The notes: generated by a model not told the origin, from the sequence alone. DNA of 60,831 nucleotides, filler included, from Hausera hauseri (GCA_046269625.1; 10 parts of 10 records of this genome joined end to end with filler, not necessarily neighbours in it), one strand, 5' to 3'; counted from the first letter of the whole stretch, positions 4,681 through 60,831 are shown. Program-made: numbers and translations.

Positions 4681-4841
4681 TAAGCTCAATTAACTTTAAG
4701 CCTATTTTCATCAAGTACTAGCTCCAGGGAAACCAACCACTCCAAAACATCCCTAGATCTTTTACTTCCTGCAATATCATTGATGGCGTAGCTTTCGGCA
4801 CGTCCACACTAGGACAACCTAAAATAATCTTAGAGCCTACC

Positions 4842-26200: not shown

Positions 26201-26260
26201 TTCGCTAGGTCGAAGATTTCTTTTCTTCATTTTTAAAAGTTGGTAGTATTTTTGAATCAT
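23168..26260 (-). CDS. Myosin-XV-like tail (FERM-like/MyTH4/FERM) fused to ~1.5 filamin Ig repeats
   Basis: KREIFLPGE...FCQIVRD, LAVSHTGVRL, MyTH4 ELSDEGILQVFKQINGNPN, FERM FKRITW...LLFYQ...LPRFG, then filamin CKDNGDGSATVSYCP..GEYAIHI...SPF. Confidence 0.8.
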   Translation of the reverse strand: MIQKYYQLLKMKKRNLRPSEVPKVDVANRALFLEYFFKKKKGLPMAPEPVKKTPSPPIDHVQSKPYKFDRMPSISLKRQESIIPRPRLSYTKNETARIEHDENDSIDTLNIYSPRKLAKHSILTKPKIVQRARKDSKNVKNENVLSLQSYQPFLDELDASISLGSKSIETSLEQPPKKKRFVSDKKAIILSGLPDLRYISYTNSSWFPMLKREIFLPGEVHDNALLNSVIFCQIVRDLLEFPCNRWMGNEKKRLIALLGEYGNVRDPKVPLNAPKSLMLKVIDEAQKCELYFSRFYAIKLHSSKTEYNGCFWLAVSHTGVRLVEQNFTNPKSRISIVSHIPFDSIISMNCENPDVYSNQTKLIIKSKSTKYKIITQYAYSIYSLIQEFQGQKENDTIGGILNLDKIDGSIPLIPDRKRRKNDLLKKSNLISGDLNVSIYGANKERIPVKTVLEKDRKTLKEPENKIVDKNLIDFVQLYFKHKEILMMCSQAEPSGSGKAADYAINVLKKLLQNRELSDEGILQVFKQINGNPNNMIRQMLWNFLSIIVVFVGISKRMQPYFEYHLKQVAKNPLNPEQDLANIVIKNFKLFLKFGLRKEFPKKEEIQQLLNEAYVKQLNILLSKGSKSVETTFTSTVGDVIAMICKVAGIIDEKEILEYGLLAVPNGKQQIKSIFSGYLKSQDYIHEHVNLLQKQKQSRYNFYFKRITWICPLNVDKRNDEFINLLFYQLSEEMIFGEWLLDDDINSSMDDMDKITTLACYCLRGQGYEGKLTKEALKMALPTAILNSKVSTSKRPKLVTMINAHANDTDDYMNEIKCRRQFLLKFKSLPRFGNIKCRIINLNNEQPDRQMFITFARRSIFISLSQIECKDNGDGSATVSYCPQTVGEYAIHILFENEDILNSPFMIDVVSRTTDHKSNKIKVFGPALSKEILKVGHTYMFTVDVTHSYGHTNLLVTQCYDKSGLTVPVEILNDSKNRRIYSLIPHSTPKLNLCITFDGVNVFGSPFMIYVDDNASTTKFYSDENSVHSKK

Positions 26261-27573: not shown

Positions 27574-28579
27574 NNNNNNNNNNCGGTTGTTGTTAACTGA
27601 TAATAGTTAATTGACAAATAATTATAAGCATAATGCCATCGGTTTATATAAAAGCTCAACCGGAAAACGCATTCAAAGTGGTTTGTAAAATGTATAAAAC
27701 AAGTATAGAAGACTTTTCATGTTGTGCAGGTCTAGAAATAATTTTTGTACACTCGCCAAGACCATTCAGAGAGACGCCGACAGATCGTGCAAATGGTACG
27801 GATTTCCAGACGAAACAACNNNNNNNNNNNNNNNNNNNNNNNNNNNNNNNNNNNNNNNNNNNNTTAATTAATTAANNNNNNNNNNNNNNNNNNNNNNNNN
27901 NNNNNNNNNNNNNNNNNNNTTACTGATTGTCTATTTTCCCACTGCATGTTTCATTTTTGAGCCGTTTAATTTTAGCTTCTAAATTTGTTTTGTAATTCTA
28001 AGTACATAAATAATTTCGGATAACAGATTTAAAATCATACCATTTGTCGTACTATTCCTTGAAACAACGCTATGCGATTTTCAAAGCCCATATTTATTCC
28101 CAAACACCAAAATTAAAATAAAAATTTTCTGACACAAACCGACCAATCAGATTGCACCAAGGGTGGGTGGGAATAGTGAAACCCAATCTGCACCAGAAAA
28201 TGCTTTGTTTAAAATTTAAACAATTTTTTTACGCGCCAAATTCAAATTTATACACGTATCTAAAAACCATACAGTACGCGTACTTGTGTATATCCACTTT
28301 GTGACTGTGTGTCTCCTATCTCCGCCCTATTAACCGTGTATGTGTGTATCGTTTTATCTACCCAATGACGCATCTGAGAACCACTTTTTTCCTTCCTTCC
28401 ATGGGGGGGAGGGCAATGTCCTCACTTCCTCCTACTTCCCGGTTTAACAGCACAGCAACCAATCCATTGGCAATGTTCATTGACTGCTGAAACTGCACAT
28501 TACTCATGTATGTGACCAACCGCTTTTCGCTATTGCATAGGCGTACATTGAGCCGCTTTTTTAGATTCTGCACTGTTTT

Positions 28580-31290
28580 CTTTACAGGGAATTGTTTTCA
28601 GCTTGTAGTAGTCCTTTTCGAACTTTGTCCAAGCTGCGGCTCGTTTCTCCGAATTTCCATCTATGTACGCCTTGAATATGGGAGCCTGACCAAATCGTAT
28701 TGCACGATGCAGCTGTGTGAGGCGTACACCCAACTGTAGCCGAAGCCAATTGACCACGTAATTGAGCTTCGGTTCATGCGTCATGAGCAGTTTCTTCACT
28801 TTTGAGCATGGCGGATATTGGTTAAATGGTGCGACCGGTAAATCGTCTAAAACGTCATGCAGCTCATCTGGTACCACGAGATCAACCTTTATCAGGTATC
28901 CAAATGAGTTTGCCATGTATGCTGTGGTAGGTTGATTATTATGTCGTCCAGGTCTTGTCTGTCGACTACCCATTTGAATGAACTGTACGGTAGGGGTTGC
29001 AAAAGCGCCCAGCCATACAGGTTATTAATATAAATATACAGCAGTGATGTGGTATCGGCGGTAGCACTGACCTGATGCTTGTTGACAAATATTATGCCTC
29101 CGCGAATAACAACATCAAACAGCCGGCACATTTCCGGGTCTTGCAACAGCTCAATGCTTCGATCCAGTGACATTAGAGATGACACTGGTATAGAATAAAA
29201 GTTGAGTGGCTCCAGCCTATCTTCAGTCAACGCTTTTGCTCGAAACGCCTGGAACACATCGGCTAACAGGTACACATCCTGTTTAAGATACTGAAGCATG
29301 TACTCCAAGAGGTTTCTACAGCCCATCTCTGCCTAAAACAATCGTGCTTTGTGATAATCTTCTTCTGTGATACCGAGTCATTGCGGTGGTAATTTGTCTG
29401 TCGTCTGAAGCCGCTCGTACGATATTACAAAGTCATACGGGAATATGCCTTTGCATCGTACAATATGCGTGGGGAACTGAGTCAAAGTTAGCGGCACATC
29501 CGGCAAGGCATTCACCAGCTTTGCCAGAGATTTATTGAGAAATTGTAATGAATCAAGGAAGCGTACCTGGAACCAGTTTATACGAGCAGACAGTGACAGG
29601 TATTTCAAAACCGTAGTCGGAATGATGAATAGTTTTCAGTGCGGATATCCGTTTATGGCCCATTTCAAAATATGGTGACAGTCATAAACTCGGAAATTAT
29701 GAAAGACCACCTGTTGGGATGGCCGTATGCTCCTTGCCAGATTGCATGAATTACATGCAGCGCCTAAGTATTGACCGGTCAAATGATCGTGATCCGATAC
29801 GAGCCGTTCTTGTGCATCAAACGGCAATATTTTGTGGTAGAGGTAGCATTCATCAATGGCGGCAAACATCAATGGTTCGTATTCGTCTGTCGATATCAGT
29901 GGCTTAGTGGAATTATTGAGATACCACGGCGCAATTTCCGTTTCTACTATTATTTCCAACAGATGTCGGAAATCACGTACACAGTTCCAACCGTGAAACG
30001 CATAATACTGTGGTTGACCAGTGGCTTTTATCGGAACAACCAGTACACCGACGGCGATTGGTATGTGTTTTTGGTCGTAGATGCTGTGCCGCGGTAGAAT
30101 TGCCTCGATGTCGGCATATGCTACATATGCCGGACTGTCCGTTTTTTACCAGTCAGTGCATCTTAGCTCCTTTCTGACGGGCCTGAGATACATTGTTGTT
30201 CCTGAGGCATTCTGTCTGCAGAGCACCACATGCTATTCACATTTTGCTTCTGATCTGAATCCATACAAACATAGCAGACACCCTTTAAATCTTATTTGTT
30301 TCTGGATGAACAGGTCATGCGCCATATTCAGCAGTATGTCAAGATTTGTCACTGCTACGTAATGAAATCGATCGTTCTGTTCCAACAGCAACAAATTCAC
30401 TGGGCGTCCATTCGGGTTTCGACTGCGATGGATGATGTTCTGATGGTTTTTTTTTAAATGTCTTCATCTGCCGGTATTTCCAGTATTGTGTTGTACCGGA
30501 AAACGTTGAATGACAGCGTCGGATTACGCCGTTCAAATGCCGGATGGATTTCAATTTCATTGGCATCCTTCTTTCATCATAGTACAATTCGGAGAAATAC
30601 TGCCGATACAGATTTGGACGACTGGCATTGTATCTGGCCACTTCATCATATTTCAATATGGCGAAAATACTGTAAAGAATGCAGTATTTATCGTTCGTAT
30701 TTTGCACATTTACTACCGTACAAGACTGTTGTAAAGCTGTAGGTGTCGGTATGAATGATCGGCCGGATAAATAAATGACATCACTAGACTTTGTTATAAT
30801 AAAGCCTAGTGTGACAATTTTCATATTTCGCCATCCACTACCCTTTTCCGTTTAGTTGGCGATTTTCTCATCAAGCTTTTCGCCAATGTCCCGAATAAAA
30901 TCTTCTGAATAAGGTACAGCTTGATGTGACAGGTACCATCGTTTCCTGTTGCCCTATACATTTTCGAATTCTGCAAGTGCGTAATATTTCACTTTGCAGT
31001 ATTTGAATTTCCGCACTTCAGCTTGCAATCGGTTTCGCACACTAGACGGGACATGACTCATTTGCGTTGTTGTGTTCGCGGACATGTCCACCTTCATGTC
31101 CACGTACGATTTGTTTAGATAGTAATTCACGGTAATGGGAAAATTGACTTCCTGTTCCTGCTGTTCCTGTTGCTTCTTTTCATCCTTATCTGTACTGCTT
31201 CGAATTAATTCGCCAAGGCTTGTGCAGGCCTGGAGTCTTCTGCTGCTTGTTGATAGGATGTTGTTGTTGTTGCTTTTTATTGCGTCTATG
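28580..31290 (-). pseudogene. Polinton protein-primed DNA polymerase B, degenerate and 3'-truncated
   Basis: GRSFIPTP...VVNVQN, DHDHLTGQYLGAACNSCNL, FHNFRVYDCH, FLDSLQFL, KGIFPYDF, YLKQDVYLLADVF, IRGG, NNLYGWA..QPLPY, FEKDYYKL. Confidence 0.93.
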
Positions 31291-33331: not shown

Positions 33332-34380
33332 TTCGCAGGACACATGCCTGGAAGAAAACGTTAGAAAGAATATTGAATAAATATTTTTGGCCCAGCATTT
33401 ATATTGATGTAAAGAATTTGGTGAATGCTTGTGAAGTATGGGCGATTAAACAAAGGAAAACAAATAATTACATGCCCGAATTAAAACCAATAAGTGTGCC
33501 CTATAGGCCTATGCAAGTCATGTCAATGGATATAGTAGGACCGCTACATACAACTCATAAGAGTGATAAATATATTTTAACTTGTATTGACCGACTAACT
33601 GATTTTGTTGAGTTGATAGCGTTAATTGATATAAAGGCAGAAACCTTGGCAGAAGCTGTAGTAAGAAGAATCATTGGTCAATATGGACCTCCAGACCAAA
33701 TATTAACCGATCGAGGAAAAAATTTTACCAGTGAACTATTCGAGAAGATTAGCAAAATATTTTAAATCGAATGGTTAACTACAACCGCGTATCATCCTCA
33801 ATGTAATGGAATGGTTGAACAAATGAATGCAACTGTAATTCGCATACTATCAACAGTAGTAGCTAAGGACCAAAAAAATTGGGACGAATTTTTAGAATGG
33901 ACTGAATTTGCAATTAATACCACCCCTCATCCGGCGACAGAATTTACCACATTTTTCATAATGTATGAACGTGAGGCTGTGTTACCACAGACTTAGGAAT
34001 GACATCATACACAGTCAGTCCCGAAAATCTAGAACAAAACTTTGCAGAAGTATTACAGACGCGACTAGAAAAATGTTGGGAAATCGCCAAGGAATTACCC
34101 CAAGAATATCAAGAACAGTTTAAAAACAATATGATAAGAAAGCGAAACCACATGAATTAGAACAAGGAACCTGCGTTTATGTACATTATGCAGTAGCCAA
34201 GAAAGGCGCATTATTAAAACTGACTCGTATAGGCAGAGGTACGTACGAAGTTACTGGAGTTACTCCAACTACGGTGTACATAAAAACGAATGGAAAGGAA
34301 GAAGTCGTGTCAGTACAAAGAGTTGTTAAGACGGAGATACGGCCCAATAAACGTTATAATTTACGTAAACGCGAGATAAA
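33332..34380 (+). pseudogene. Gypsy integrase (element A)
   Basis: SMDIVGPL, LTDRGKNFTS, AYHPQCNGMVE, RYNLRKR. Confidence 0.92.
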
Positions 34381-35817
34381 AACTTCTTCAATAATTGCTA
34401 GACCGATATCATACATTCAGATAGTTTTAGCGCTATCATTAATTGCTTCCTACATCCCAAGAACACAAACCCAAGGGTGGGACGATGAAATTACGCTAGG
34501 AGACATATATGGAATTCGGAAGAGCGGACTAAAAGCGAAAAATACCATAGCGGAAAAGAAACCAAAGGCCCAAGAGATCCAGATGTGAGAAGACACTGTT
34601 TTGTTACAATCGATGAAGGTCATTATTTTTCACCAGACTCTCTGTGTTTGGGATTTAAAACTTTGAAACTGCATCAAGATTTTGGAAGATTTCAATTTTT
34701 CGTATACAATATAACAACAAAAGAATCGAAAAACTGTGATTTTGAACCCTAAGATTATACACAATGCTGCGACATAGATTTTGGATACATTTATATTCTT
34801 ACTTATCGACTATACTTACCAGAGTCATCAGACGTCTACATCGAAGTAAATTAACAACTTCAGTTAGTTATTCCCATTTGGATCAAACGATTCAAAGTGA
34901 AACCAGGTGAAATGCTACAATCTACCGACACAAACATAAGGTTATTAGATTAAAATATCAAAGGGATCTCAATAAATAAGGAAAAACAATGCATCCAAGT
35001 AGATGCTCAAATAGGATTAAACTTTAGTCAAGAAATTAGTACTGTTTTCGAAGCAGTAAACAGAAAAATCCCAAGAATAAATTACTGTTCTGTTCATGCC
35101 GGTGTGCCACACCCATTTTGCAAGCTACCAGTAAACCAAGAATTCAAAATAAAATTTGATCTATATTAAGTACGACCGAATAAACCGAACTAACATTTGC
35201 GAACCTATTACCCAGAGAATAGAATATGGAAGAATCCAGTAGAAACAACAACCGAAAAGCCGACTATTTGAGTTAGTGCCACTACAAGACCCGTTACATT
35301 AAGCAGTGTGCTTAAAAAAGAATTAGGAAGTATACCTGTTAAATTTTCGGCGCATCGATCTAAAATTGTGTTCTTTTTAGAAGAAAAACTAAATTACGAT
35401 ATACACATAAGCTGCCGAACAACGTATAATAATCAAATTGTAACATTATTTAAAAACACTTATCAGACAGAATGCAATCTGTTAAAACCACAATCTTATT
35501 ACATAGTACAAGTATATGCAGAGAATAAACAAAACCAAACACTTACATTGCGTACCTTGGACGAAATTCGCGCAGAGTTGCATATATACGAAAATATCGA
35601 CGACGAAGTCACAACACCAGTCACCACACAAGCACCAATAGGATTAACTACTTTACCAATCGTTTCCATTGTCGTACTATCAACGTTTATTCTCATTATA
35701 TTAATTGTCATTTTTCGGTTAGTTGCCAAAAATTATCATTGTAAGCGTCCTAAAAATACAGAATGGGAATTACGGGAATTGGAAACCCCCACTGATCCGT
35801 ATGATGAAATAATCTGA
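34381..35817 (+). pseudogene. Env-like type I membrane protein (signal peptide, ectodomain, FN3-like domain, Thr-rich stalk, TM, YxxI tail)
   Basis: IQIVLALSLIASY is in frame with the integrase end; CNLLKPQSYYIVQVYA; TM IVSIVVLSTFILIILIVIF; tail ends PYDEII. Internal stops and frameshifts. Confidence 0.7.
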
Positions 35818-35915
35818 CAAATACAGAGCGGGTTATTCTATTACCTAACAAAGAATTGGTTTCATTTTAAGACCATCCTTTGTTGTAATATTAACCCTTA
35901 CTGTTTATTTTTTAG

Positions 35916-38312
35916 ACTGATAAGTAAAGAGAGAATTATAAAAACGGATACCGGACAACCTAGGATCGACGGACCACGTTTTATCCGAGAATTAGAATCA
36001 CCAAAACGCCGAATTAGTATCGACGAGTTCCTGCAGAATTACGCTACCGTTTTCGTTCCAAATTCCAAATTCATATATCGAGAAATTTATAACGAACTGC
36101 ATGAGAAAACTTATGTGAAGTATGATCAGAGCAGTAAAATTCCTAACAATTTAAAGGGTATAACGGAGGAAAATAGGATTGTCTACCTTTACGCCATGAG
36201 AGAAGATAAGGATGCTCGAGCATATTCACTCAAACGAATAATCACGTATGAAAACCGTCAAATTATTTACATCCACCTAGCAGATGGAGAAATATATTAT
36301 CGATTCAAAGATCAAGAATGGAACACAAACAACGGAAGGCAATACAGATTTAGTATCCTTAGCTTACGTAGCGAAGATTTACAGCATTACGAATTAGAAT
36401 TCCGAGTAGCCGCCCTTCCCGTAAATATAATGTTCGAGGTAACGTACGACGATTACCCCTTTGTCAAACTGCCACCTTTGAAATTTCATAATCAACCGTC
36501 AGAAAAGGACTCTGGCACATTCTCACAATCTCATAGACTAGTGCAAGACGCCAGAAATACGAGAATCATAACAATCAATTGCGGAGAAGGGGATGAAGCG
36601 AAGAAAAATCCAATGTAAGTTTCAAGTCGAGAAACGAACGGAACAAAAGTATATTGTGCAATTATTAGCCCGAGAAAATGTGTTTGTGAGACATACTACG
36701 ATACGACAAGAATTCGCAAGGAAACACTCACAAGAGGTAGAGAGATCAAACTTGTCCAAGCTGAATTGAAACAATGTTTTTACGGATATATCCTAGCTGA
36801 ATATCGCATCGATAGAATTGTCGAACTCTTGGCGATACCGTGCTCAAGCATCGTAGGAATGCGTGAGATAGGAACAGACCCAGTAGTCGCCGAAAAAAGT
36901 AAACGAATATTGCGAGAAAGGAATTACCCTATGCCAAAAATTATGGACGCCTATTTCAAATTAATGGTTGACGCGATGAACAGCGAACATGTAAGATTAA
37001 CAAACTGTTAACCTCAAGTCAACGTACTCAATACTTGCGAGATATTTATGTAGCTTTAAAATTGGACCATGAGTGGACACCCAGTAATCCAGAACAAAAT
37101 TTACGAAGTACATCCGACCCGGAAACCATAAACAAAAAGTATCGTAAGCAGTATCGTTTGTATTCCCCGTGTAGAATCGTGGAACCCATGGGGCAGGATA
37201 ATATCAAAATAACTTCGGAAATGAGATAAATCGTGTACCGACGTGCCCAGCACCAGTTATGGTTCCCACATCAAACCAATTCCAGAAATGAAATCTAAAA
37301 TCAAGGAAATAGAAGCAATTGACACATTCAAAGTACCCAAAATTCCACCAAAAAGCTGAAAGCTGGAACACAAATTTCCCCGATTAAAAGAAAATTATCC
37401 CTCTATGATTACTTGTTCAGAAAGAAAAATAAAGGAACAAACTCAAACCAAGCTCAAGAGGACCGAACCGATGAAACGAACTAAGAACCCGAAATTTCAG
37501 AGATAGCAAGAGAAATCCCTACAACATCCGCAAATGACCAAATGACAATCCCAGAAAAACCCAAGAGAAAAACATACAAGTACAAAAACCTAGAGAGCGG
37601 ATTTCAACAACTGTTCAGGAAAGCAAATATCCTAAGAAAAAGGATTTCCCAAGAAGATATACACTTCGCAACAACTAAGGATTACCCGAAGATGCTAATA
37701 ACCAGCGAGTATTATAGTCACCAGAAAATTAAAGAAGCAATGTTTTTCGTGAAGACCACACCAGCTCGAGAAGTATACAAAAACACCTACATTTGGGAAA
37801 ATCCTAAGATAGGAAGGTATATTGCGCCAGTTTTCCAATCGAAAAGAAACGGCAAGTTAACAGTGCTAGTAGATAAACAAATGAAAGCTTTGCTGAAAAA
37901 ACAGCATCAGAAGTATCAAACGGATGGCGAAATTTCCGACTTAGATCGAGATACCATCGCCGATTGGATCTTAGTACCAGTAGGTTGTGACCCTAGAAAG
38001 AGTTCTGTAAACCCCAAACAAAAGAGAATCCATGGTTACCTATATCAAGATAAAGACGGTCTCATATTCGAACCCATAGAGCTCACAATAAGAGTAAATT
38101 TAGACGACGAGAAATGGGATAAAAAGGAAAACGAATGCCCAGTATGTGAAACAAATCTTAGTGAAAAATATGTTGTTTTGGATAATCGTGATTTTAGACA
38201 CAAATATTGCCGAGATTGCTTGGAAAAATGGACCCTAGATAATGGCAAAACCACCTACCCGGTGTGCAGAGCTGAAGCAACTGAACCGAAATACTTTTCG
38301 AACGGTAGTTAG
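35916..38312 (+). pseudogene. Accessory ORF3 of element A: N domain, dead DEDDh-like fold, conserved C domain, RING variant
   Basis: One frame runs from a polypyrimidine-AG (35914-5) through 36115..36618 and 36766..37011. It aligns with ORF 56301..58100. CPVC...HKYCRDCLEKW...YPVCR at the end. Confidence 0.7.
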
Positions 38313-38612
38313 ACCCGTGTAGTTCGAATAAAACCCCATTGCAGTTATGAATTGGAAATACGGACTCAGAAGTGAGCTTACGTAGACGAATAAATCTCCT
38401 AAGACAACCACGTTATGACGTCACCTCTCCTGACGCAATGGGCACTTACGAGGATGCCGCTCAGGGAGGGGAAATGTTGTAAAGACGTCCAATATTGAGA
38501 AGACGTCCAAAANNNNNNNNNNNNNNNNNNNNNNNNNNNNNNNNNNNNNNNNNNNNTTAATTAATTAANNNNNNNNNNNNNNNNNNNNNNNNNNNNNNNN
38601 NNNNNNNNNNNN

Positions 38613-40900
38613 TCTTGGAATGTACCCGGTGCTGCTGCTATTCCAAAAGGCATTCTGTTGAAACAAAATTGTCCCCGTTTAGTCGAAAAGGCTGTTTTCA
38701 ACTTAGATTCTTCCTCTAGTTCGACCTGGTAGTATGCGTTTCTCAGATGGATTGACGTAAAATATCTAGCCCGATATAGTTTATCCATCATTTCCATGAT
38801 ATTCGGCATGAATATGCTTGCCTTTATGTGACGAGTTTCAACTGTCTAAAGTCTAGACAAATTCTGACATCGTTTTTCTCTTTCTTCCAGACGCATATCA
38901 TCGGAGTATTCCAAGGTGATTTACATTTCTTGATTATATTGTTTTCCTATAAGTTTTGGATGGTCTCATCGATTTTAGTTTCTAAATCCACTGGTTGTCT
39001 ATGCGGTTTGATGTTAATTGGTGCATTTTTTGTGTCTATTCTATGCTTTACCAATGTTGTACAGTCGATATCCCACTTGTCAGCCACGAAAACGTCTTTG
39101 TTCTTTCGTACTATGTCCAATACGACTGAGTTTTTGTTTTTCCATAGAATCTCCTTCGCTCTTTTGAATCGTTCTTTATTCGTCACTTTTCGGCCAAATT
39201 TTCCTTCTACGTTACGTATATTATACCTTTGTTCTTCTCCATCTTTCTGTCCCCAACCTAATTCGATTTCAAAAGTATTTTGTAGTTCCATTCCTTCAAT
39301 TATTTCTGGTGATATGTCTGTCACTACTCTGAAAGTTACGCACTTTTGTACACTCTTGAGTTCCGCATTTACGGACAGTTCACCCATCCAGCCTAGGGGT
39401 CTACCATTTGCACAACGGAGCGCAATATCTGATTTCTCCAGCTGAACATCTATCAGACTTTCAAAAATCTTCCTACTCATTACGTTTACCCGTGCCACTG
39501 TGTCCAATAGGCAGTTTTCCCATCTACCCTGTATCTTTATTTTTATACCTGGCCGTCCTTGTAGTTTATCGTACGTGATCTGCTTTTGCGACAGTCCTGG
39601 AAAAAAATCCACTCTTCATGGAGGCTCTTGTTTTGACTTTCTGTAATTCGTACTTCTTCATTTCTGTCTCCAAACGTTCCCTCCTTTATGAACCGCCGTA
39701 ACTATTCCTCTCTTCTTTCCTTCATTTCTTCAATACCTTGTCTATTCCTTTCAATATTTTGGAAGCCTTTGGAGTTGTTTAATGTAATGCCCGACAAGCT
39801 CCACTTCTGTCGAGGCTCTGCCTTTTGGAGTTGTCGACTCTATGATGGATTCTTTATAGTCTTCATCAATATTTGCAACATATGCGTACCTGCTGTTTAT
39901 CCTCTCTACATATCTTTTCTGACCATACCACGCAGGTTTGAAATTGTCTGTATACGTATTTTGTCCTCCTCTGATCTTGTCCAATTTGTATAACATTCTT
40001 CTTCCCTGTGCACTTTATTGTGACACCTATTGAATTTTATGTTTATGAAATTTCGCTTTATGTGTCCTTGTTTCCGGCAGTTCCCGTCAATGTGCCCTTC
40101 TTTTCTGCAACCAAACATCTTGGTACTTGTTGGAAGTTGCATGTCCTGCTTTCATGCTGTCCTTCTAGCACGACCAGCATTTCATCCTTTTCTTTATATG
40201 CGTATTTTGTGATTTGAAATCCCTCCTTTCTTGTCTTGGTTTATCAAGTTTCTGCATTGCCACATCCCGATAACTCCGTCAACCCTCTCTAGTGTATTCT
40301 TTGACTGTGTCTATTTCTTGCATCTTCTTTGCAACTTTGTGAACTTTCTGTATTTTCAATTTGATTTGTTCTAAGTTTTTTTCGTCACCGCGGTAGATTT
40401 CCTTTCTCGTCTCCGGATCGTCACAACAGTGGATCACAATTCCTTTGTTAGAGCTTCCAGTGTTACTTTCTGGCTAAATATGCTTTTAGCCAGTTATTCA
40501 ATTTTGCTGAAGTAGGCGGCCAGTTCTACCACCTCATTCTGTAGTCCAAGGCCTCCTGCAGATCTCCACACAGTGCTGTCGGTTTTGAGAAGGCTTTTCT
40601 CAACCGGTTTTGGTATCCTTTCACTTTCTGGCTCACCAGATTGTATTTCTCCTGTGCTTCTTCCGCCAAAAGGCACAGGACCGCGGTTTCCCGGTCCGTC
40701 TCCGACATCTTTGTGAAGTCGAAGTATCTCTCGCATTTTCGAATAAAGTTTTCCACGTTGTCACACATTTGGAATTCTTTGACATCAATTTCTTCTCGAA
40801 AAATTCTCTTGAAGCGTTGGTCGCTGTGTTAGTAGATCGCGTTTCTACCATCCCGACTTCAATGTCACTTGATGATTGTAAAATACAATTATCCATAAAT
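38613..40900 (-). mobile_element. Degenerate Ty3/Gypsy gag-PR-RT 5' half
   Basis: Gag MVETRS...VENFIRKCERYF, zinc knuckles GCRKEGHIDGNC, protease LLDTVARVNV, RT HLRNAYYQVEL...MPFGIAAAPGTFQ. Probable LTR boundary at 40877. Confidence 0.92.
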
Positions 40901-50111: not shown

Positions 50112-51459
50112 AGAGTTCTGTAACAAGGACAGGGAGGGAGTCATGAATGCACAGAGCACACTCAGTGGGCAAAGTCATGTGAGCTGTGCATTTGGGAATG
50201 AGTCCAAACAGCTGATCTTGTCACAAACATCATTTAGAGAGCTGTCACTTTGAGAAATTAAACTCGTGGTGTCATATGTCTGACAGTGTTTNNNNNNNNN
50301 NNNNNNNNNNNNNNNNNNNNNNNNNNNNNNNNNNNTTAATTAATTAANNNNNNNNNNNNNNNNNNNNNNNNNNNNNNNNNNNNNNNNNNNNTATAAAAAA
50401 GTCCAGCCAAATCCAAAAGTATTATTCAGAAGATACGGCAAAAGTTTCAGAAACTCCGGTGCAAAATTCAAAAGACCGGGAATTATCACCAAAAATGTTT
50501 ATTCGCGATATTCCCAACATTATAACCCAGGAATTGATAATACGTGACTCTATGTTTCTGGATGTGAAATGGGGCTCTATTTACCTTTACCCCAGTTACC
50601 CCACGAATAAGATACCCTTCGGAAGAAACAGCTGTCCATTCTATTCTACTTTTCAAAAGTCCCCCTTGCCGATGATGGATGATAATGTTGGGAGGAATGA
50701 GGTTGTGTTTGGGGGCCAACCGGCTATCCCAACAATTGCGAGTAATGAAATAGTACTGTTCGAATTTATTACGATACAAGCTAAGTTCAATACAGCAGAT
50801 ATAGAATCATAGTACAGATCAGCCACATTTTCTTCCAAAATTAAGAATGTAAATCTTTCGGATCCAAAAATATACTAGCAAATTCGAAAATTTCCTTTTA
50901 GTCATACTTGAATCTCCGTTCAAATAAGTCACTTAGAATATTTTATCGTGGTTAATTGCCTCAATCCTTATATACTGGTCTCATTTTACTCCCACCCACG
51001 TTGATGAATTTCTGTCAAACCAGAATTCACCCAAATGGATTCTTCGTGGGCGTTATCTAATTTATGACATTTTCGTTGAAGCCGCCATTGATGTCATTTG
51101 TGGACTGAATCATTTAAAATTTCTAATTCTAATTTCCTGTTTTTCTGATTTAGAAAATATTTCAATTTTTGTTTTAATGGGATTAATAATTCTAATTTCG
51201 GTTTTTTAGATACAGCATTTTATTTACATTGCCTGTACAATTTTCTACTCAATTTCTATCTTTTACAACATTTCCCTGAACGGCACTATCGTGTGTGCCC
51301 TTTGCGTCAGAAGAGGTACCGCCTTTATTGGAGCGGCTTAGTAGATTTAGTCATCTGCTTAAGTCTGCTTCAGAATCTGATTCATTACCTTGAGAACGTA
51401 TCTCTAAATGGTAATCCGTATTGGGTCTCCGAGGGAATATCTCTACTGTCCTGTTACTT

Positions 51460-52376
51460 TCCCCATTGGAGAAATTTCGTAGTTTCGTGGATTCAGCGCG
51501 ACATACTGGATAGGTCGTTTTCCTGTTTTACAGGGTCCTCGATTGCAGACAATATCGACAATATTTAGGAGTGAAATCCGTTGTTTAATACTACGAATTT
51601 TTAGTAAATATTAGCCGCATATTGGGCATCCTGCGTCTTCGGCGGCGTCTATATCTACTCCGTCATCTAATTCAATTCGCTCAAACACTAGTCCTTTTTG
51701 ATCTAAATACAGATACCAAACAATTCTTTCTGAGCTGGATGGAAGAAATTTTTTCTCGGGTCGCCGGATACGGAAATTAGCGTCCATTCCATTAACTCAT
51801 CCTTATCCAAATCTGGAATACCAATCTTTTTGCACTGTTGCTTTAGATGTATCCGAACGTGGATATCTACCAGAACAGTCAATTTCCCGGTTCCTATCTT
51901 TGAACTGAACACTGGAGTTAAGTATTTCTCTAATTCTGAGTTTTTCCCAGCATATGCATTTTCATACACGCTTCTTTTGGAATCAGTAGAAACAGAACAT
52001 GGCCTCCTTGATTTTGCCTTTACTGTAGTTTTCGGTCATGATTAAAATCCTGGAGGATTCTTTGATTTGGCCAAATTCCATTACTATTATGGGAACGTGT
52101 TCCTCTGCTGTTTTCCTTAGATCATCTACTTCCGACATCCTGGCTTTTCTAGTTTCTCCTTCTTTAACCGTCCTTCATAGCGGAAGATTTTTCTTCTTTA
52201 TTCAGCGGTTTCTTTGGTTTTTTGTCGTTTCGGTTTTTTCTGGGATTCGTTGTTTCTTTTTGGTTTTTGATCCCGGTTTTGTCTCGCTTTGTTTGGTTGA
52301 CTGATAGAATATTGTTCGGTTGATCTGCCTTTTGTGGGCTGTCATTGGCCCTATTCTTCTTTGTCCTTATACGCAA
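51460..52376 (-). pseudogene. ORF3 C domain plus RING variant of a third related Gypsy element (C)
   Basis: PVFSSK..GKLTVLVD...DLDKD...DPRK, CPICG, KYCRYCL...TTYPVCRAE match 37542..38312. Confidence 0.8.
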
Positions 52377-52377
52377 A

Positions 52378-53111
52378 GAGTAGGTAGAAGCGAGCTTCCT
52401 GTTGCACTCCTCTGATTGGCCCTAAAACCATTGGTCCTCACCTGATTGGCTAAAACGACCATTTTGGTAAAAATATTGGTAACGCCCCAGTGAAGGAAGA
52501 AAGTCGAGCAATGAATTTTAGATCGTGACCAATTGGTCAAGCTAGACAAGGCGAGCAAAGGTCAACAGCGCCGCGAAACCGAAAAATGTAACCCGGTGGT
52601 ACAGGATGCGGAAGAAAAAAACGGGCAATATGCAACCAGCAACGCAACACGTTGCTGGTATACCAAAATTTAGTACAGAGGTAAAATTGATATTTGCAAG
52701 TCGAATGGACAGTTTCGTCGTCATCCGACCGTGGGAACATGGGGAAAACCGGTTGGGAAAATTTCCCCCTGTTCAAGTCTGGCAGTGATGGAAAGAGGTC
52801 AGACACATTGCCCATAAGTTGGGGGAAATTTGATATTATAACAGCCTCACAGTCAGACCAACGGATCCGGGTGAAAAATGCAAAAATTCGAAAAACGCAT
52901 TGTTAAAAAGAGTCAAAATTGTCATCATCATCATAATCATGATCATTGTCATTATCGTTTTGTCAATGCGTTAATTTTGTAAAACGTGGATTTTATTTCT
53001 TTTTGTACGACGATGCTTAAAACCGAACGGTTTACGATCGATCGATCGCACAAAAGCGCCAAGAGCTCATAATTGAATACTACTACTACTCACAAGGAGA
53101 ATGTTTGTGAT
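52378..53111. mobile_element. Short version of the unclassified element at 18544-20376
   Basis: Shares the left and right ends and lacks the 324-aa ORF. Confidence 0.6.
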
Positions 53112-54815
53112 CCAAAGTGCAATGGTAGTTGTGGTGGTGGCACCTGAGACCGTCTGCTGCTTACAAAACAAATAATCGGTTATCGTAACGGAATTTCACT
53201 ACACAAAACAAAAGCTTCAACAACAACAACAAAACATGTATTTGAAATTCACAAATCTGCAGTAAACATTTAGTCATTGTTCACAAATCAAGAGTTTGTA
53301 GCGTAAGCCACAATAGGCAGTAATGCCCACATAATACGGTAAGTGGATGTTGATCCCCGAGGAAGAGAAGAGAAGTTTAGAATAGGTATATATATGTACG
53401 GCTATGTTCATTGAAAGTTATATTACATATATAAATCGAACTTTGACAGAAAGTATTGTTACTGAACTTTGACATCAGACTTGATTTTAACCGAAGGTAT
53501 ATAATATCAATTCCACATTTTCCATGTCATAAATTTCAATTCAATGGCAAGTGAAGTGAGTATTAATTTTACTTATGTATGTATTAAATTTTGTCGATTT
53601 TAAATTTATTGAGATTTTAAACTTTTACGAAATTTGCAATACTTTTCTTTAACTAATATTGTTTTAATATACATTTAACACGTTTCCTATATGTTCTATC
53701 AATCTAAAATGTATTCGTTTAATTCACAATGGTATATTCAGTAGTGTACAGATTTTGGCTATGACATAACTGACCACATATTATATTCAATGGATATTTT
53801 CATTTCTTTTTAAAGCAACTTCTTCAATCATATGATGTGCTGATGATTATAAATAATTTTACAATTATTAATTAGTACTCTAATACTTTGATCACATTGA
53901 TCGTGCCATTACGAAATGGTTGGTGTAAATTGTTAATGATAAATGTATCATTTAGCTTATATAAAAGTAGTCGATAAATGAAAACTACAATATATTGTTA
54001 CGTTCGATTATGTAGCTTCGATACTAACCAATTGCGGACAAAATAAATGAAATAAAAGTAGGCAAGCTTATAGTGTTGACTTGTTTATTGGTCGTCGAAC
54101 AAACTGGACGTTGACCTGCTTAAGACATCTCCGTTTTATTTTTATATTAGATGTCAACACAACTGAATAATTTAAAGTTCTGAAACCAAAATCCAAAGAC
54201 GTGTGTGCTTTGCAATTATTATTTAAAATACAACGAAATGGAAAGGTTAAATGCATTAATTATTTTCCATCGAATTTTAATCGAGATTATTTCAGCCCTT
54301 AAATAACACCAAATATCAATGGTTGTATGCACGTCATTTGAAGCTTAAAGCGTCACAGAGCAATTAATAAAGGTGAAAATCATGCGAAGTTCTTATGCAA
54401 TAGGAAAGAATAATTTTTACATGATATTTACAAGGAACATCACCTTACTGTTATTCGGAGTTTTACAAGTTCTGCACGTTCTACAAGTAAAGAAAGAAAG
54501 TGTTTGTGTTATAATTCTATTTAATGAAGTGTTTTGGATAAACTATAATTTTTTCCAATCTGATACGTACACAAATAAGTTTGCTTTCCATTGCACTACA
54601 GTTTGTGACGAACGGGCGTGAACAGTCCGTACTCTAACGGTTTCCCATGTTGCTTCACATTGATCACTAATTTGTTGAAACCACTTGCGCACCACCTACT
54701 ATAAAGTGGTTATATTAATTGAGGAAACTTTGCTGGCGTACACAACTCATGAAAGTTTCACGGCAATCGGCTGAAGGGCATAGGAACAGAGAAGTGAGAA
54801 ACAGACAAACACAAC

Positions 54816-54950
54816 CACATTTCCCCACCTATCTGACTATAAGGATCATTTAAATTTTTTGGGTGACCTAGTTTTCGGACAAACACATTTCCCCACCTAT
54901 CTGACTATAAGGATCATTTTAATTTTTGGTGACCTAGTTTTTGGTCTGAC
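54816..54950. repeat. 68-bp tandem repeat x2, related to 32850-33095
   Basis: CACATTTCCCCACCTATCTGACTATAAGGATCATTT...GGTGACCTAGTTTT at 54816 and 54884. Confidence 0.85.
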
Positions 54951-55589
54951 CACACCCGTTTGCAAGCAGAGATATTCGGGATTTTGTGTATAATATCGAA
55001 AAATCGATATATCTCTGGAACGAATAAAGATAATTTAATGCAATTTAATGTGTATGAATGGAATTAATTCCTCTACTGTCCTGTTACTTTCCCCATTGGA
55101 GAAATTTCGTAGTTTCGTGGATTCAGCGCGACATACTGGATAGGTCGNNNNNNNNNNNNNNNNNNNNNNNNNNNNNNNNNNNNNNNNNNNNTTAATTAAT
55201 TAANNNNNNNNNNNNNNNNNNNNNNNNNNNNNNNNNNNNNNNNNNNNGCATTGGTTGATTTTTATTGGTTTGTGAATGGTTGTTATTTGCTTGTGTGCAT
55301 TTCTGGTTTTTTGTATGTATGTTTCTTTTAGTTTTTGTGTGTGTATATATTTTAAAACTTTTAAGGTTAACCATCCACTCCACATTTCTATCCACAATTG
55401 GGGCAAATAACAAAGCCGTTGTTATTAACAAGTTTTTACTAACTACATATTTTATCTTATTCAAAAATATTTAAATTTTTAATAATTTAGTTTATTTTAT
55501 CAATTGATTATTTTTAGTCAATTGTTTTCTAAAATGTTTAATTTCAATAATCTTTTTAATATAAAAGCATCTTTGTTCCCTAACACATT

Positions 55590-56093
55590 TGTTAAAAAAG
55601 AGAAATTTAAATACATTTCTACCATAGAAAATTTGTAATGTTTTTCTTGAGTCAAATTGTCACTATTACAGAATAATTCAAATTGTGAGCATTAACAAAA
55701 ATTTAAAAACAGTAATCGATACAGTCGTGTGTGTACGCTTGTTTAATGGCAGAATTACTCATACGATACTGATTGCGGAGTTTTTTTTAATTTTCAACTA
55801 CAGTAACAATTACGAATGATAATCAATGGCGTCTACAACAGTAACTGCTATGCACTTAGTCACCTTAAGTTTTGATGATATGGACTATTAGAAATATTTG
55901 AAATTTGCAAAATCTTTCAATTGTAAAGCAATTTTTCGAATTATGAAGTAGCATTTTAAAATGTTTCACTTTTAGCTAATTATGGTTATTGCATAATGTT
56001 CAAAGTTGTGTGTTCAATTAGGTTCTAACGTTCTAACTTTTCATCTGATTCTCTGGCTCTATTAAAGATGAAAAACATATCTGTTCCCTAACA
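55590..56093 (-). mobile_element. 3' LTR of element B (504 bp)
   Basis: TGTTA...TAACA termini. On the minus strand it is preceded by a PPT (A, G-run, AAGA) at 56094-56107. Confidence 0.75.
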
Positions 56094-56300
56094 TCTTCCC
56101 CCCCCCTGTAATGAAATTTTTCTTAAAAATTTAAATATTTATTATCATTTAAACATTCAATAACGAATAGAAGATATGATAAAAAAAATTTTTACAGTAA
56201 TAAACATAGATAAAAAATAAAGTACATAAAATATAAGATAGACAGATATAGAAATACACATAAAAGGAAAGTTATTAAATCACAGCAAGTTTGTTATTTG

Positions 56301-58391
56301 TCACAATTGGATTGTCCATCCTGGGGTCCTCTGTGTTTCTTCTTTTGTTCTTTGTCTAGTGGATAACTGATACAAGTTCTCCAATATCAATTCGTCTTTT
56401 TTGGCGAATAATAGCATCCGGAGTCTTCTTTTGTTTGTGTTTTTTATTTTAATCACTGTTCCACCTCTAGGTTTTGGGATTGGAATATCGTCCAGTTGAA
56501 CCGGTATTGGTTGTTGTATCAATATAGGTTCATTTTGTAAAAGCATAATGGCATCTCTATAACTACCAAGCATAGCCAGGTGCAATGTGTTGCCTTGGAT
56601 ATGCCGGTAAATAATACCAATTAATTTTCCATGATCAGGATGCGGAACTATCTGATTATCTTGATCTTGAGTCGTTTTTGGCTCGTGGATAAACGTTACG
56701 TTGATAACTTTATTTATGTTACCGTAAAGTAACATTGATAGTTTGATTCCTATTGTACGCAGAGTTGGTTCTTTTTCTTGGAATTTTGTTATTTTGTCAG
56801 TTTCTGTTTGGTTTGTTGAATTGCAGATTTCTTGATTATTTGGCTTTGGATCCTTTTCATGATCTTGTAGGTCTTCGAACTTGAAATTTTCATGGTATCT
56901 TTTTGGGATTTGGTGGAATGCTCCATAGTCGATCACATTATGATTTGGTGATAACCAATCGAACTGCCACGTTTCATTTGTGCAAGAATTGTCTATTTGA
57001 CTATAGATGTCCATTACTGCATGGATTATGGACTCTGCATTTTTCGGGAATTCATAAGAAAATCCATAAACTTTTGGTAGTTGGGTAAGGTTAATCTTTA
57101 AACCTTCTTCCTGAAATCTATCCTTGGTGATTTTGTTACTCAAGATATCTATTACGCCGAATACAAAATGTTCGGGTATCCGAAGTGCTTTTAGAATAGT
57201 GCTTGTATTAGCACTTATTATGACATATCCAGTTAGGAATTTGATCAGCTCGGAACGATTTGCTTCTTCATCTTCAGATTGTTGAATTATTTGAAGAGTC
57301 AAACCATGAATGTGTTCGTTGGTGTTGGCTATTCTCCGCCTAGGGTTTATGTAGGCCTGGAAAATAATCAACTTCTCTTCGTTTGTAATGATGACTTCCA
57401 CTGGTAGTGGATCTCCGTTGACTGCGTATGCTAAAGATACGGCCAAGAATCTATAATTAAAGGCTTGGGTTAGCCGATAATTACAAATGTCATTTTTTGG
57501 AACTTTGTAAAAGATAGGTTGTTTAAAACCCGCTTTGTCTTCTAATGGCTGGCAGATCTCTACTCCTAATACCACCGGAGTTAGTAGTACTTTGAAGTAG
57601 AGGTTGGTTTTTAGCGCATTGGCCATTATCCTCATGGTAGTCTTTGATCCAATGATGCTTTTTTGCGGATTAATACCATCATAGGTTTCGTTTTCAGCCT
57701 TCCACTGGATTTTACCAGTAGCCACGTGCACCAGGATTTTTTCGAGTGGCTGTTGTGGTTGAAATATCGCGGCGAAATTCATATTGTACGATGGTTTTTC
57801 GATTCTAATTATTCGAAAAACCCGTTCGTTGAGAGTATTTGATTTCAGCGCATTGTCCAAATACTTACATTCTGGATATATAAGATCGTCTGATTCCTGC
57901 ATAAGTTGAACTAATTTTGTGTAGAATTTTGTTGGGTACAGATTTCTGTTAGCATCATAAATAAGAATGGATTTGTCGTACATCTCTTCCCATGTACGAT
58001 TTCTGATTCTATCTTCTTCACTTTCTTTAACATTTTTTATAATTTGATCCTGAACTTTTTGTTTCTTCTTTTCCGGGAGATCTTCAAAAGTTATCTTCAA
58101 ATTCGGACTATTGATTGTATTTTTGGATGATTTAACAATTTTGGAATTCTTGGCATACTTAATATGCCTCGATTTAATCCGAACCCTTGGGTTGGGTTTT
58201 GAAAGGTGAAAGAAGTTGATGGTTCTGATGGTGGTATAACCCTTCGTTTAGGGTTGGGGACCACTGAAACGATTGAACTGTCTGAATCAGATTCTGAGTT
58301 GCTATTTTTATCGAGATCGACTTCCATATCTTTCGTTTTCTTTTCGTCTTTCGGCTCGTAAACTGGAGTGTTGAGAAAATTCATAGGTTTG
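56301..58391 (-). CDS. Accessory ORF3 of element B with an inactive DEDDh (REX4/ISG20-like) exonuclease fold
   Basis: FLAVSLAY...VIITN...IFQAYINP...TNEHIHGLT...ELIKFLTGYVII...LKALRI...AVMDIY follows the REX4-type pattern without the acidic or His catalytic residues. One frameshift near 58100 joins the N-terminal part. Confidence 0.72.
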
Positions 58392-58914
58392 CTGTAAAAG
58401 AAAAAATAATGATAGCGGGTCGTTTTTAATGGCCCGTTTGCAAGGTAGGTTGTTACCTTGCATTGGTTGATTTTTATTGGTTTGTGAATGGTTGTTATTT
58501 GCTTGTGTGCATTTCTGGTTTTTTGTATGTATGTTTCTTTTAGTTTTTGTGTGTGTATATATTTTAAAACTTTTAAGGTTAACCATCCACTCCACATTTC
58601 TATCCACAATTGGGGCAAATAACAAAGCCGTTGTTATTAACAAGTTTTTATTAACTATATTTTCATTTTCGAAATTTTGTAAGGATTTTAATTGTTTTTG
58701 AATTTGTTTCCTTTCTATAATCCATTTTTTTAATTCGATAATCATAAATGGTATAGATATTGTTATTAGGAGTACAGTTATTACTGTAAATGGGATTATA
58801 GTTTTTAATGTAGTGATATGAATATTTGGTATTATTGTGGTCACTTTTAAGGTATATTGTTGTATTTCTAATGGAATCAGATGTTTTTGTGTTTTGGTTG
58901 GTGTTCTGACTGTC
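58308..58914 (-). CDS. C-terminal stalk/TM/tail of the element B env-like protein (frameshifted)
   Basis: KTVRTPT...TIIPFTVITVLLITISIPFMIIELKK continues the 626-aa ORF after a 1-nt shift near 58920. Confidence 0.65.
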
Positions 58915-60831
58915 TTATATTATACTGCTGCATGATTTTGGGAAAACGACTAAATATTCTTCATAGGGTTGGAGATCACTACATCTTGCCATTTTTTCAT
59001 TTTGCTTTATGGTAGCGTATATAACATGATATTTTCCTATACATGTTATGGTGATTGGATTTTTTACTAGTTGCATGGTTTTAAATTCAATATACAAGTC
59101 TGTTGTGCTTAGGTCAATTTCTGGTATTTTATTGAAATATGATATAGGAGTTGATTTAGTTATATCTATTTTTGGTGTTACTGTAGGTGGTATTAGTAGT
59201 CGTTTTTCAACCTTAAAAAACTGTGGTAATGTCATGTGGATATGGAAGTTTAAGGCCTTTTTGCCTGATTTATGCTCGAAAAATTTTGGAAAATAATATG
59301 TTATTTGTAAGTCAACATTTTCTTTTAAAGTGGGTCTCTTTATTACGATTTTATTTATCATTTTTGGACTATCGTCTTTTTCTTGAGTGAAAGAGAAAGT
59401 TTGACCCATCTTTTCTACATGAATCTGTCGGGCTATCGGACTAAATTCATTTCTTTTTTGTATGAGGTTTTGAGTTGTCAAAAAATACAAATCAATGGTA
59501 CAAGCTTTATTTATGAGTGTGGTAGTACATTTTTTAGTAAGTAGCCATATGTCTAATTCTTTTGGTGGCAATATTAGTTGAGAGATCTTTTTAAATTCTG
59601 ATTCTCCAAGAAATAGTGCATTTACCTGTTTTGGTAAATATTGCCATCTTAAATTTATTCGTATTTTCATATCGTCATCGATCCGTTCGGTTGTTAATAT
59701 TTGGCCTGTTGCTGATAATATTAGACCAAAGATCATAATTATGAAGAATAATTGTTCTAAGCTACAAGTTGATTTTAAAACTGGTTGTTTAGTTGATCTC
59801 AGGGAGTATTTTGGTTCCTCTGTTGGTTTGGGTTCTTTTGGTCCTTTGGTTACTCGTTGGGCTGATATACATTCAATTCTGGTCTTTTTACCAGTTCCTT
59901 TTTCGATAAAAATATTTTCGGGTGTAGTTTTGACTACTACAAAAGGTCCTTTGCCAGTTCGAGTTAATTTTAATGATTTTCCTGGTTTGGTTACTGGATA
60001 GTGTACCATTACTTTATCACCTGGTTGAAACTTATGAGGACTAGCTTTTTTATTATAATATTCTTGATATTCTTGTTTGTATTGTTTTATAGCTTGTTTA
60101 GCCTTTTTCCAATAGTTTGCTAAGCTATTAATAACACTTTCATGTATATCTTCATCCGACTGATTTTCAGGAATTTCTTTTTCTGGTAATAACTGAATGT
60201 CCATGGGTAGAAGTGGTTTTCTACCGTACATTAATTCGAAAGGTGTAAAACCTGATGAGCTTGTTGGTGTGGTTGCTATTGCGAATTGCACGACTTTTAA
60301 ATGAATATCCCAATCCTTTTGGGTTTTATCTATCATAGCAGATAGTATACACTGTACTGTATAATTTAATCTTTCAACTTTGCCGTTGCATTGGGGATGA
60401 TATGCTGTTGTTAGCAATCTATTGGTTTGGCAAATATCAGTTATTTCTTTTAATAATTTACTTCGGAAATTTGGTGCTCTGTCAGTTAATAAATGTCGTG
60501 GTGCGCCAAATTGACAAACTATTCTATTAATGCATTTCTTTGCTACCGTGGAAGCTAGTAGATCCTTTGTTGGAATTAAGATAGGATAGCTAGTTAGATA
60601 ATCTGTGCATAACAAGATATATTTATTCCCTCTTGAAGTTGTTGGGAATGGTCCAGAAAAGTCCATAGCGCATAGTTCCATTGGACTGCTTGGTTCTGGT
60701 AATGATTTTAACTCAGGTTTGTAACGTTTACCTTTATTTTTCATGGTTGCACACATTTTGCATTCGTCTACCCAATCCTTTACATCTTGTTCCATTGTAG
60801 GCCAGTAATATTTCTGTTTTATTCGTTTTTT
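58915..60831 (-). CDS. Gypsy integrase fused in frame to an env-like ectodomain
   Basis: CKMC, AMDFSGPF, LTDRAPNF, AYHPQCNGKVERLN, KGPF, YSLRS, then hydrophobic LFFIIMIFGLILSATG and FN3-like CSDLQPYEEYLVVF. Confidence 0.9.
   Translation of the reverse strand, partial: KKRIKQKYYWPTMEQDVKDWVDECKMCATMKNKGKRYKPELKSLPEPSSPMELCAMDFSGPFPTTSRGNKYILLCTDYLTSYPILIPTKDLLASTVAKKCINRIVCQFGAPRHLLTDRAPNFRSKLLKEITDICQTNRLLTTAYHPQCNGKVERLNYTVQCILSAMIDKTQKDWDIHLKVVQFAIATTPTSSSGFTPFELMYGRKPLLPMDIQLLPEKEIPENQSDEDIHESVINSLANYWKKAKQAIKQYKQEYQEYYNKKASPHKFQPGDKVMVHYPVTKPGKSLKLTRTGKGPFVVVKTTPENIFIEKGTGKKTRIECISAQRVTKGPKEPKPTEEPKYSLRSTKQPVLKSTCSLEQLFFIIMIFGLILSATGQILTTERIDDDMKIRINLRWQYLPKQVNALFLGESEFKKISQLILPPKELDIWLLTKKCTTTLINKACTIDLYFLTTQNLIQKRNEFSPIARQIHVEKMGQTFSFTQEKDDSPKMINKIVIKRPTLKENVDLQITYYFPKFFEHKSGKKALNFHIHMTLPQFFKVEKRLLIPPTVTPKIDITKSTPISYFNKIPEIDLSTTDLYIEFKTMQLVKNPITITCIGKYHVIYATIKQNEKMARCSDLQPYEEYLVVFPKSCSSII

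Follow-up and report, generated by a model that had tools for sequence, protein, structure and literature searches.

An accessory gene carried by an LTR retroelement of Hausera hauseri (GCA_046269625.1) encodes a segment that is almost certainly a catalytically dead DEDDh exonuclease fold of the ISG20/REX4 type, located at 57458-56970 on the minus strand (residues 176-338 if the methionine at 57983 is residue 1) and preceded in the same protein by a double-stranded beta-helix barrel. The analysis suggests that the element carries a helper protein of a new kind, one that binds and does not cut. The finding bears on the question of whether animal LTR retrotransposons make counter-defence or RNA-handling proteins of their own; the best-documented suppressor encoded by a transposable element is, in the available text of PMC6719617, a plant DNA-transposon protein. 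No instance of a beta-helix barrel paired with a DEDDh domain was found in the open-access literature searched. The family offers active and dead natural versions of one two-domain protein, through which a switch to a non-catalytic role is open to direct comparison.

Layout of the retroelements

The window, i.e. the whole stretch of DNA analysed (60,831 nt), consists of short contigs joined by N-linker-N spacers. It is AT-rich, no tRNA genes were found in it, and animal-type genes (MyTH4/filamin, kringle; Pfam) occur in it together with many transposon fragments. The gene with the dead nuclease belongs to element B, on the minus strand of the last contig (55248-60831), and a homolog is held by element A, on the plus strand of the contig 33332-38512; both contigs end inside the integrase, with the 5' halves of the elements lying beyond the window. 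The integrase of B, which together with the ectodomain described below occupies 58915..60831 (minus strand; open at the window end), is of the Ty3/gypsy type, with H2C2, rve core and GPF motif (Pfam). Integrase_H2C2 scored above the cut-off in both elements and rve above it in A and 1 bit below it in B, and the two integrases shared 41% identity over 254 columns. The Ty3/gypsy characters present are the H2C2-rve integrase and a polypurine tract followed by the TG of the LTR start.

The reading frame of the B integrase carries on through a signal-like hydrophobic stretch to an ectodomain with no family match (Pfam, hydropathy), and a transmembrane segment follows at 58737..58793 (minus strand) in a frame different from that of the ectodomain. 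This membrane-protein gene is broken near 58915, and copy B is not pristine. In A, the integrase and the env-position membrane protein (33340..35817, plus strand) contain several stops and frame changes. The env-position genes of both elements (B, 58737-59800, minus strand; A, 34400-35817, plus strand) encode single-pass membrane proteins that are fused in frame to the integrase and weakly similar to each other near the membrane (E 0.006). Neither protein matched known fusion proteins (Pfam, ESM Atlas), no Pfam family and no usable ESM Atlas match (0.77) was obtained for the ectodomain, and the gene of A gave a weak Fn3-like match (E 0.064). As regards a possible errantivirus-type env, B has signal-like and transmembrane segments, and its env-position protein matched no Pfam family.

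A 204-nt direct repeat is present in two copies, 99% identical: one (58460..58663, minus strand) separates the membrane-protein gene of B from its accessory ORF, and the other (55248-55451) is found beyond the LTR start, where the contig ends. Close to the end of the repeat stands an AATAAA, and in the internal copy the sequence extends to a TAACA at approximately 58453. The repeat may be an R-U5-like piece of an LTR of about 855 nt that was duplicated internally by template switch. It may also be a small element of its own, or one unit of a tandem array with a period of 3212 nt. A splice-acceptor-like site (pyrimidine tract plus CAG; 58392..58406, minus strand; recognised by eye) is located upstream of the accessory ORFs. 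Just past it begins a 95-codon Ser/acidic-rich ORF (58097..58384, minus strand; three-frame view) that overlaps the upstream open frame of the two-domain ORF and is either a separate small ORF or its 5' part in another frame.

The polypurine tract of B (56094..56107, minus strand; 14 nt, 10 of them G) is the sole G-rich run among five purine runs of at least 11 nt on the minus strand of the contig, with TG directly after it. The 3' LTR is probably 55248..56093 (minus strand), which starts with TGTTA at 56093 and ends either with TAACA at 55590 or just past the contig end at 55248. This LTR has its opening 23 nt (56071-56093) repeated at 87% identity at 55563-55585, 508 nt downstream and 4 bases after TAACA, which could mean that a short LTR is succeeded there by another.

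The order in B is integrase with ectodomain, transmembrane segment, 204-nt repeat, acceptor-like site, 95-codon ORF, two-domain ORF, polypurine tract and TG. The order in A is integrase, membrane protein, acceptor-like site (35904-35915, plus strand; from the sequence), homolog of the two-domain gene (36049..37011, plus strand), RING-finger ORF (37485..38312, plus strand; Pfam zf-C3HC4, E 8e-4, below the curated cut-off), purine run (38463-38474, plus strand) and TG at 38475, the LTR being cut by the contig end at 38512. Integrase, membrane protein, acceptor-like site, two-domain gene, polypurine tract and TG are common to both, and no counterpart of the RING ORF was found in B. No further homolog of the two-domain gene was found in the window besides those of A and B, a third element (50392-55147) included.

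The third element contains a broken RING homolog at 51462-52081 (minus strand; identity up to 43-67% in pieces), which precedes an LTR start near 51270, and its 3' end is 72% identical to that of A over 107 nt. An 82-nt piece from the end of this RING ORF (51436-51517) is repeated at the contig end (55066-55147; 98%, 3630 nt apart) in a layout that resembles that of the 204-nt repeat in the contig of B.

The accessory ORF

The accessory ORF of B (56301..57983, minus strand) comprises 560 codons from the methionine at 57983, its putative start, to the stop at 56301, with the frame open upstream to 58247; three to four relatives begin within about 20 residues of this methionine. Its stop-free length of 560 codons compares to a longest run of 146 codons in 2000 base shuffles. 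A location inside an LTR element had been proposed from the sequence alone and proved correct, as the ORF sits downstream of pol with the integrase on one side and the polypurine tract and TG on the other, in A and in B. Pfam assigned no family to the whole ORF or to either domain alone. The C-terminal 220 residues (56304..56969, minus strand) form a charged linker and then a region without an assigned fold (pLDDT under 50); they gave no Pfam match and no clear match in element A or the third element, and their alignment to relatives was unconvincing.

Evidence for the DEDDh fold

An ISG20/REX4-type DEDDh fold had been read at 57000..57450 in the sequence-only reading, and the searches placed it at 57458-56970. 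The isolated segment, examined as a single sequence with ESM Atlas features, gave RNase_T as its first match (0.94; 190 of 256 features) and 10 of its 10 best family matches fell in the RNase_T family or clan; in the control, which consisted of whole proteins and not protein parts, shuffled whole proteins reached 0.9 in 4-10 of 100 cases. A profile built from the four intact relatives only assigned 36.9 bits to the B segment compared to 9.1 bits for the best of 1000 shuffles. The same profile, run on all six frames of the window, matched only B and A, the latter with E 8.6e-4 within the window.

The AlphaFold model of B was built from 7 sequences and had a mean pLDDT of 50.5, with weak stretches at residues 272-313 and after 332. 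Compared to 48,161 chains, its top match was ISG20 (Z 15.5, rmsd 3.1, 155 aligned), and Foldseek matched the model to ISG20L2 (E 1.1e-7), so a DEDDh fold was found by the structure search as well. This match is not independent of the phmmer relatives because the model alignment includes the intact ones, and the ESM Atlas and profile evidence is cleaner for the same reason. MAEL (Z 9.3), Exuperantia (Z 8.8; 35th), Nibbler (Z 8.5) and arenavirus NP (Z 8.5; 42nd) ranked below ISG20, ISG20L2 and Pan2. Searched against the PDB with phmmer, the protein gave only a match to a PolC exonuclease at E 0.4.

Catalytic positions

In the alignment, the catalytic positions of B are occupied by A181 (57443), S183 (57437), I263 (57197), K314 (57044) and I319 (57029), so all five are replaced, as had been claimed from the sequence. 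The D-x-E of ExoI corresponds to A181-V-S183, compared to D-A-E in four of four intact relatives; the ExoII Asp corresponds to I263 (Asp in three of the intact relatives, Glu in one) and the His-x4-Asp of ExoIII to K314 and I319. ExoI had been read as S-L-A, which is off by two residues: the aligned residues are A-V-S, two upstream, and the S-L-A register was ruled out by sequence alignments that put the D at A181. In structural alignments with ISG20, Pol III epsilon and ExoX, whose catalytic numbering we assumed for this check, the first aligned residues agree with A181 if the strand is ungapped.

The homolog in element A was also said to lack the site, and this held for ExoI and ExoII (T, N and I), the ExoIII region being poorly aligned; an in-frame stop at 36616-36618 in that copy had gone unmentioned. 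It is related to the B protein with a BLASTP E of 1e-6 and 19% identity over 226 columns. Across the four dead proteins ExoI reads A-V-S, A-V-N, A-V-N and T-I-N at a mutual identity of 17-36% in the nuclease domain, and no alternative invariant acidic or Cys/His cluster was found in these four rows.

Fifty columns are invariant in the intact nuclease domains, and B keeps 12 of 25 hydrophobic, Gly or Pro positions among them and 5 of 24 polar ones; P0005, a dead database relative, keeps 12 of 25 and 6 of 24, respectively. A Pro-Arg pair is retained in all eight rows. The nuclease domain of B is slightly acidic (K+R 15, D+E 20), the active relatives being net acidic too, and residues 176-338 include a single Cys.

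Family members and age of the loss

A phmmer search of 1.84 billion proteins with the whole ORF returned five matches at E<=1e-3, four of which are true relatives. The fifth, P0004, was dropped, its match consisting of Fn3-like repeats over 46 residues. The Pfam RNase_T cut-off was passed by the two best matches (P0002, P0003) and failed by P0005 and P0006. Alignment-based homolog searches yielded three relatives in 7999 candidates (two of them new) and two in 6820 (none new), and a word-seeded search with residues 50-390 of the B protein as a single sequence yielded none in 2352 candidates. A scan of bacterial and archaeal genomes with P0008 gave 39 pattern matches and no relatives, and tblastn of P0002 against phage records gave no match. 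The family is either sparse in the collections searched or beyond the reach of the searches. Contigs bearing relatives measured 15073 (P0002), 14867 (P0008), 14253 (P0009) and 1561 nt (P0005).

In total, six database relatives have both domains, four with the catalytic residues and two without. P0002, P0008 and P0009 read D-E-D-H-D and P0003 has Glu at ExoII, while P0005 has none of the five residues; in P0006, which breaks off ahead of ExoII, the ExoI pair is missing. The family as analysed has eight members, and its dead set includes the truncated P0006 and the broken copy of A. For intact copies that keep the site, raised from the sequence alone as a counter-case, the check covered the family level, where the four relatives, 19-22% identical to B in the nuclease domain, keep it.

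Identity in the nuclease domain was 44-62% among intact members compared to 17-36% among dead ones, and in the barrel 22-45% and 14-46%, respectively. These ranges indicate that constraint on the nuclease in the dead members fell to the level of the barrel. Dead and intact members were split in the tree with support of 97/97 when catalytic columns were dropped, 85/91 for the barrel only and 93/91 for the nuclease only. This tree has no root, its longest branches are those of the dead rows and may attract each other, and clustering as strong arose in 21 of 500 label shuffles. Since the four dead proteins share one side of a branch and retain their hydrophobic core, the loss of catalysis looks old, on sequence grounds, and not a matter of copy decay.

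The N-terminal barrel

Residues 17-147 approximately (57543..57935, minus strand) form a double-stranded beta-helix domain with the fold of the cupin / 2OG-Fe(II) oxygenase superfamily; neither this domain nor the rotifer precedent discussed below featured in the sequence-only reading. Folded alone, the barrel reached a pLDDT of 75. Its structural matches were prolyl-4-hydroxylase (Z 10.5), ALKBH6 (10.3), pirin (9.6) and small cupins (about 9), with rmsd 3.4-3.7 over 134-143 aligned residues, and the matches listed were barrel proteins of this superfamily. The subfamily is not assignable because the top matches are tied within 1 Z unit. Viral matches of the barrel were AlkB-bearing plant-virus replicases and poxvirus proteins, and the full model matched the N-terminal domain of vaccinia C16 (Foldseek, E 1.7e-4), one of many barrel matches and not the best. 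Poxvirus C16-family proteins are inactivated oxygenases.

The barrel is common to all eight proteins, with invariant Y, N, L, K, R and G. Enzymes of the 2OG-Fe(II) oxygenase and cupin type bind metal through an HxD/E..H triad, which was in place in none of the eight rows; HxD/E itself was absent from seven, and the barrel of element A has one H-Y-E on a different strand. Judged by these residues, the barrel is non-catalytic in all eight members and the nuclease in four.

Among the BFVD matches of the full model, the second was a piece of a 1231-residue viral protein (BFVD A0A1L3KJK8_2; E 9.2e-6, 374 columns, rmsd 29.9). This protein may hold a similar barrel and exonuclease pairing, or the long alignment may be an artefact.

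Comparison with known systems

Juno and Vesta, LTR retrotransposons of bdelloid rotifers, carry a DEDDy exonuclease as ORF3 whose function the authors left open, naming Maelstrom and EXD1 as inactive derivatives (available text of PMC5408684); reviews repeat this account (available text of PMC6338049; PMC6431247). Like that ORF3, the gene of B is a DEDD-superfamily gene downstream of pol inside a gypsy-like LTR element, and ORF3-type genes are described as typically expressed from spliced messages (available text of PMC5408684). The rotifer protein is RNase D-like, DEDDy, intact (DEED) and in place of env (same source), whereas that of B is DEDDh-like, fused to a barrel, placed after a membrane-protein gene and dead. 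Unlike the DEDDy type, the relatives of B have the ExoIII His, and the best matches are DEDDh.

The structure of B and the sequence of the intact relative P0008 (E 6.4e-16) both find their best match in the ISG20/ISG20L2/REX4 group (PDB 1wlj, 7yw5). Unlike members of this group, B lacks the catalytic residues, has a family-specific N-terminal barrel and resides in a retroelement. The two-domain gene sits like the rotifer ORF3 and is folded like ISG20, and it fits neither by its defining residues. The barrel likewise has the fold of the cupin / 2OG-Fe(II) oxygenase superfamily without its metal triad.

B has an exonuclease fold without catalytic residues, as expected of a DEDD pseudonuclease, and by analogy it may bind RNA. 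In Exuperantia and Egalitarian the exonuclease domain is dead or dispensable (available text of PMC5785220), as it is dead in B; unlike B, these are host genes with different partner domains, and Exuperantia ranks 35th by structure. The two-domain protein may work like Exuperantia without its defining residues. MAEL and arenavirus NP share a DEDDh-derived fold with B, the DEDD motif being absent from MAEL. Each of the two has an ECHC zinc site, which B with one Cys cannot form, and the NP exonuclease domain is a viral counter-defence domain (available text of PMC7968707). The analogy with arenavirus NP drawn from the sequence is weak, as the NP exonuclease is catalytically active (available text of PMC11796362, which, like PMC7968707, treats RNA-virus DEDD domains) and ranks 42nd by structure.

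In the open-access literature searched, no report was found of LTR elements with an exonuclease of the DEDDh type, a dead one or one fused to a barrel. In the available main text of a survey of env-carrying gypsy elements (PMC13524379), the term DEDD is absent.

Proposed function

The preferred reading, to which we give a probability of roughly 0.4, is that the dead domain acts as a non-catalytic adaptor or binder for the element's own RNA, by analogy with Exuperantia and Egalitarian. The gene belongs to the accessory region of a large Ty3/gypsy-type LTR element with an env-position membrane protein. The family goes back to an ancestor in which a beta-helix barrel became joined to a 3'-5' exonuclease of the ISG20/REX4 type; by alignment, model and tree, one lineage then lost all catalytic residues, presumably long ago, while keeping the fold. 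The acceptor-like sites in A and B suggest that the protein is probably expressed from a spliced subgenomic RNA. The dead domain would bind structured element RNA without cutting it, and binding could shield the RNA 3' end from host trimming nucleases or route the RNA for packaging or germline delivery, in the way that Exuperantia and Egalitarian handle host mRNAs; the barrel would serve as a protein-contact domain. We favour a binder of own RNA because of this analogy, the dead DEDD domains of both proteins binding structured RNA (available text of PMC5785220), and because known anti-silencing factors of transposable elements are narrow in action and do not target whole pathways (available text of PMC6719617). 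Pocket-based RNA binding is not favoured given the slightly acidic charge and the few polar residues kept.

The decoy or suppressor of small-RNA silencing proposed from the sequence alone is conceivable but unlikely; here the dead domain would imitate a DEDD factor from the piRNA, siRNA or antiviral pathway of the host and titrate its RNAs or partners. The accessory position in a genetic parasite would suit such a decoy, as would the fast divergence of the dead lineage, although relaxed constraint accounts for that divergence equally well. Maelstrom and EXD1, both inactive DEDD derivatives, take part in piRNA biogenesis, and a part in silencing has been considered for the rotifer DEDDy ORFs (available text of PMC5408684); the nearest folds of B, however, are ISG20, ISG20L2 and Pan2, with MAEL, Exuperantia and Nibbler ranking lower, and the single Cys leaves no MAEL-type ECHC site. 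Broad suppression by transposable elements has also been argued to be self-defeating (available text of PMC6719617).

It is also doubtful that the protein is purely an adaptor between proteins, in which both dead folds would scaffold a host restriction or DNA/RNA-sensing protein and possibly pass it to a RING ligase. The catalytic acids were mostly replaced by hydrophobic or small residues, with the core kept and the polar surface lost, and RING ORFs homologous to each other lie downstream of the gene in A and ahead of the LTR start in the third element, but B has no RING ORF and no partner is known. The structural match to the N-terminal domain of vaccinia C16 points the same way, although it is one of many; C16 blocks DNA sensing, though via its C-terminal region (available text of PMC8301327). 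A further reading, which we also hold to be improbable, would see an undescribed lineage of large LTR elements with a membrane-protein gene and an accessory region like that of retroviruses, in which an active element-borne nuclease was turned into a double pseudo-enzyme (dead oxygenase/cupin barrel and dead ISG20-like nuclease) for counter-defence against host RNA trimming or small-RNA silencing, in some elements together with a RING ligase.

Maintenance of the dead fold over the long term is probable, and a neutral relic, i.e. a captured nuclease gene that lost its function and drifts in decaying copies, is given little weight. Copy A is interrupted by its stop at 36616, the membrane-protein gene of B is broken, the dead rows carry the longest branches, and variation of ORF3 within rotifer genomes is mostly neutral (available text of PMC5408684). 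That 560 codons stay free of stops although B differs from its active relatives by about 80% is nevertheless incompatible with long drift and fits selection on the fold, and the ExoI replacement is common to four distant proteins in which core residues were preferentially retained. It is very improbable that the domain has kept nuclease activity through a non-canonical active site, a case that has been made for some MAEL domains: the fold is intact and the Arg215, His227 and Asp238-type positions are partly kept, but none of the metal-binding positions holds an acidic residue, and the dead rows show no substitute invariant cluster.

Other features of the window

Fragments at 20688-21218 and 28530-30851 (both minus strand) resemble, by eye, the Polinton/Maverick genes for the capsid and the protein-primed polymerase, and the only Pfam match in them is Endonuclease_7 at 29639-30145 (E 6.3e-6). 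An uninterrupted ORF of 1030 codons at 23168-26260 (minus strand) contains MyTH4, FERM-like and filamin domains (Pfam), a pairing that is unusual, and it is unusually intron-free for an animal gene. Finally, degraded gypsy-type pol fragments (RT, integrase, protease) are located at 3484-5588 (plus strand) and 38561-39615 (minus strand), on separate contigs and unlinked to elements A and B.
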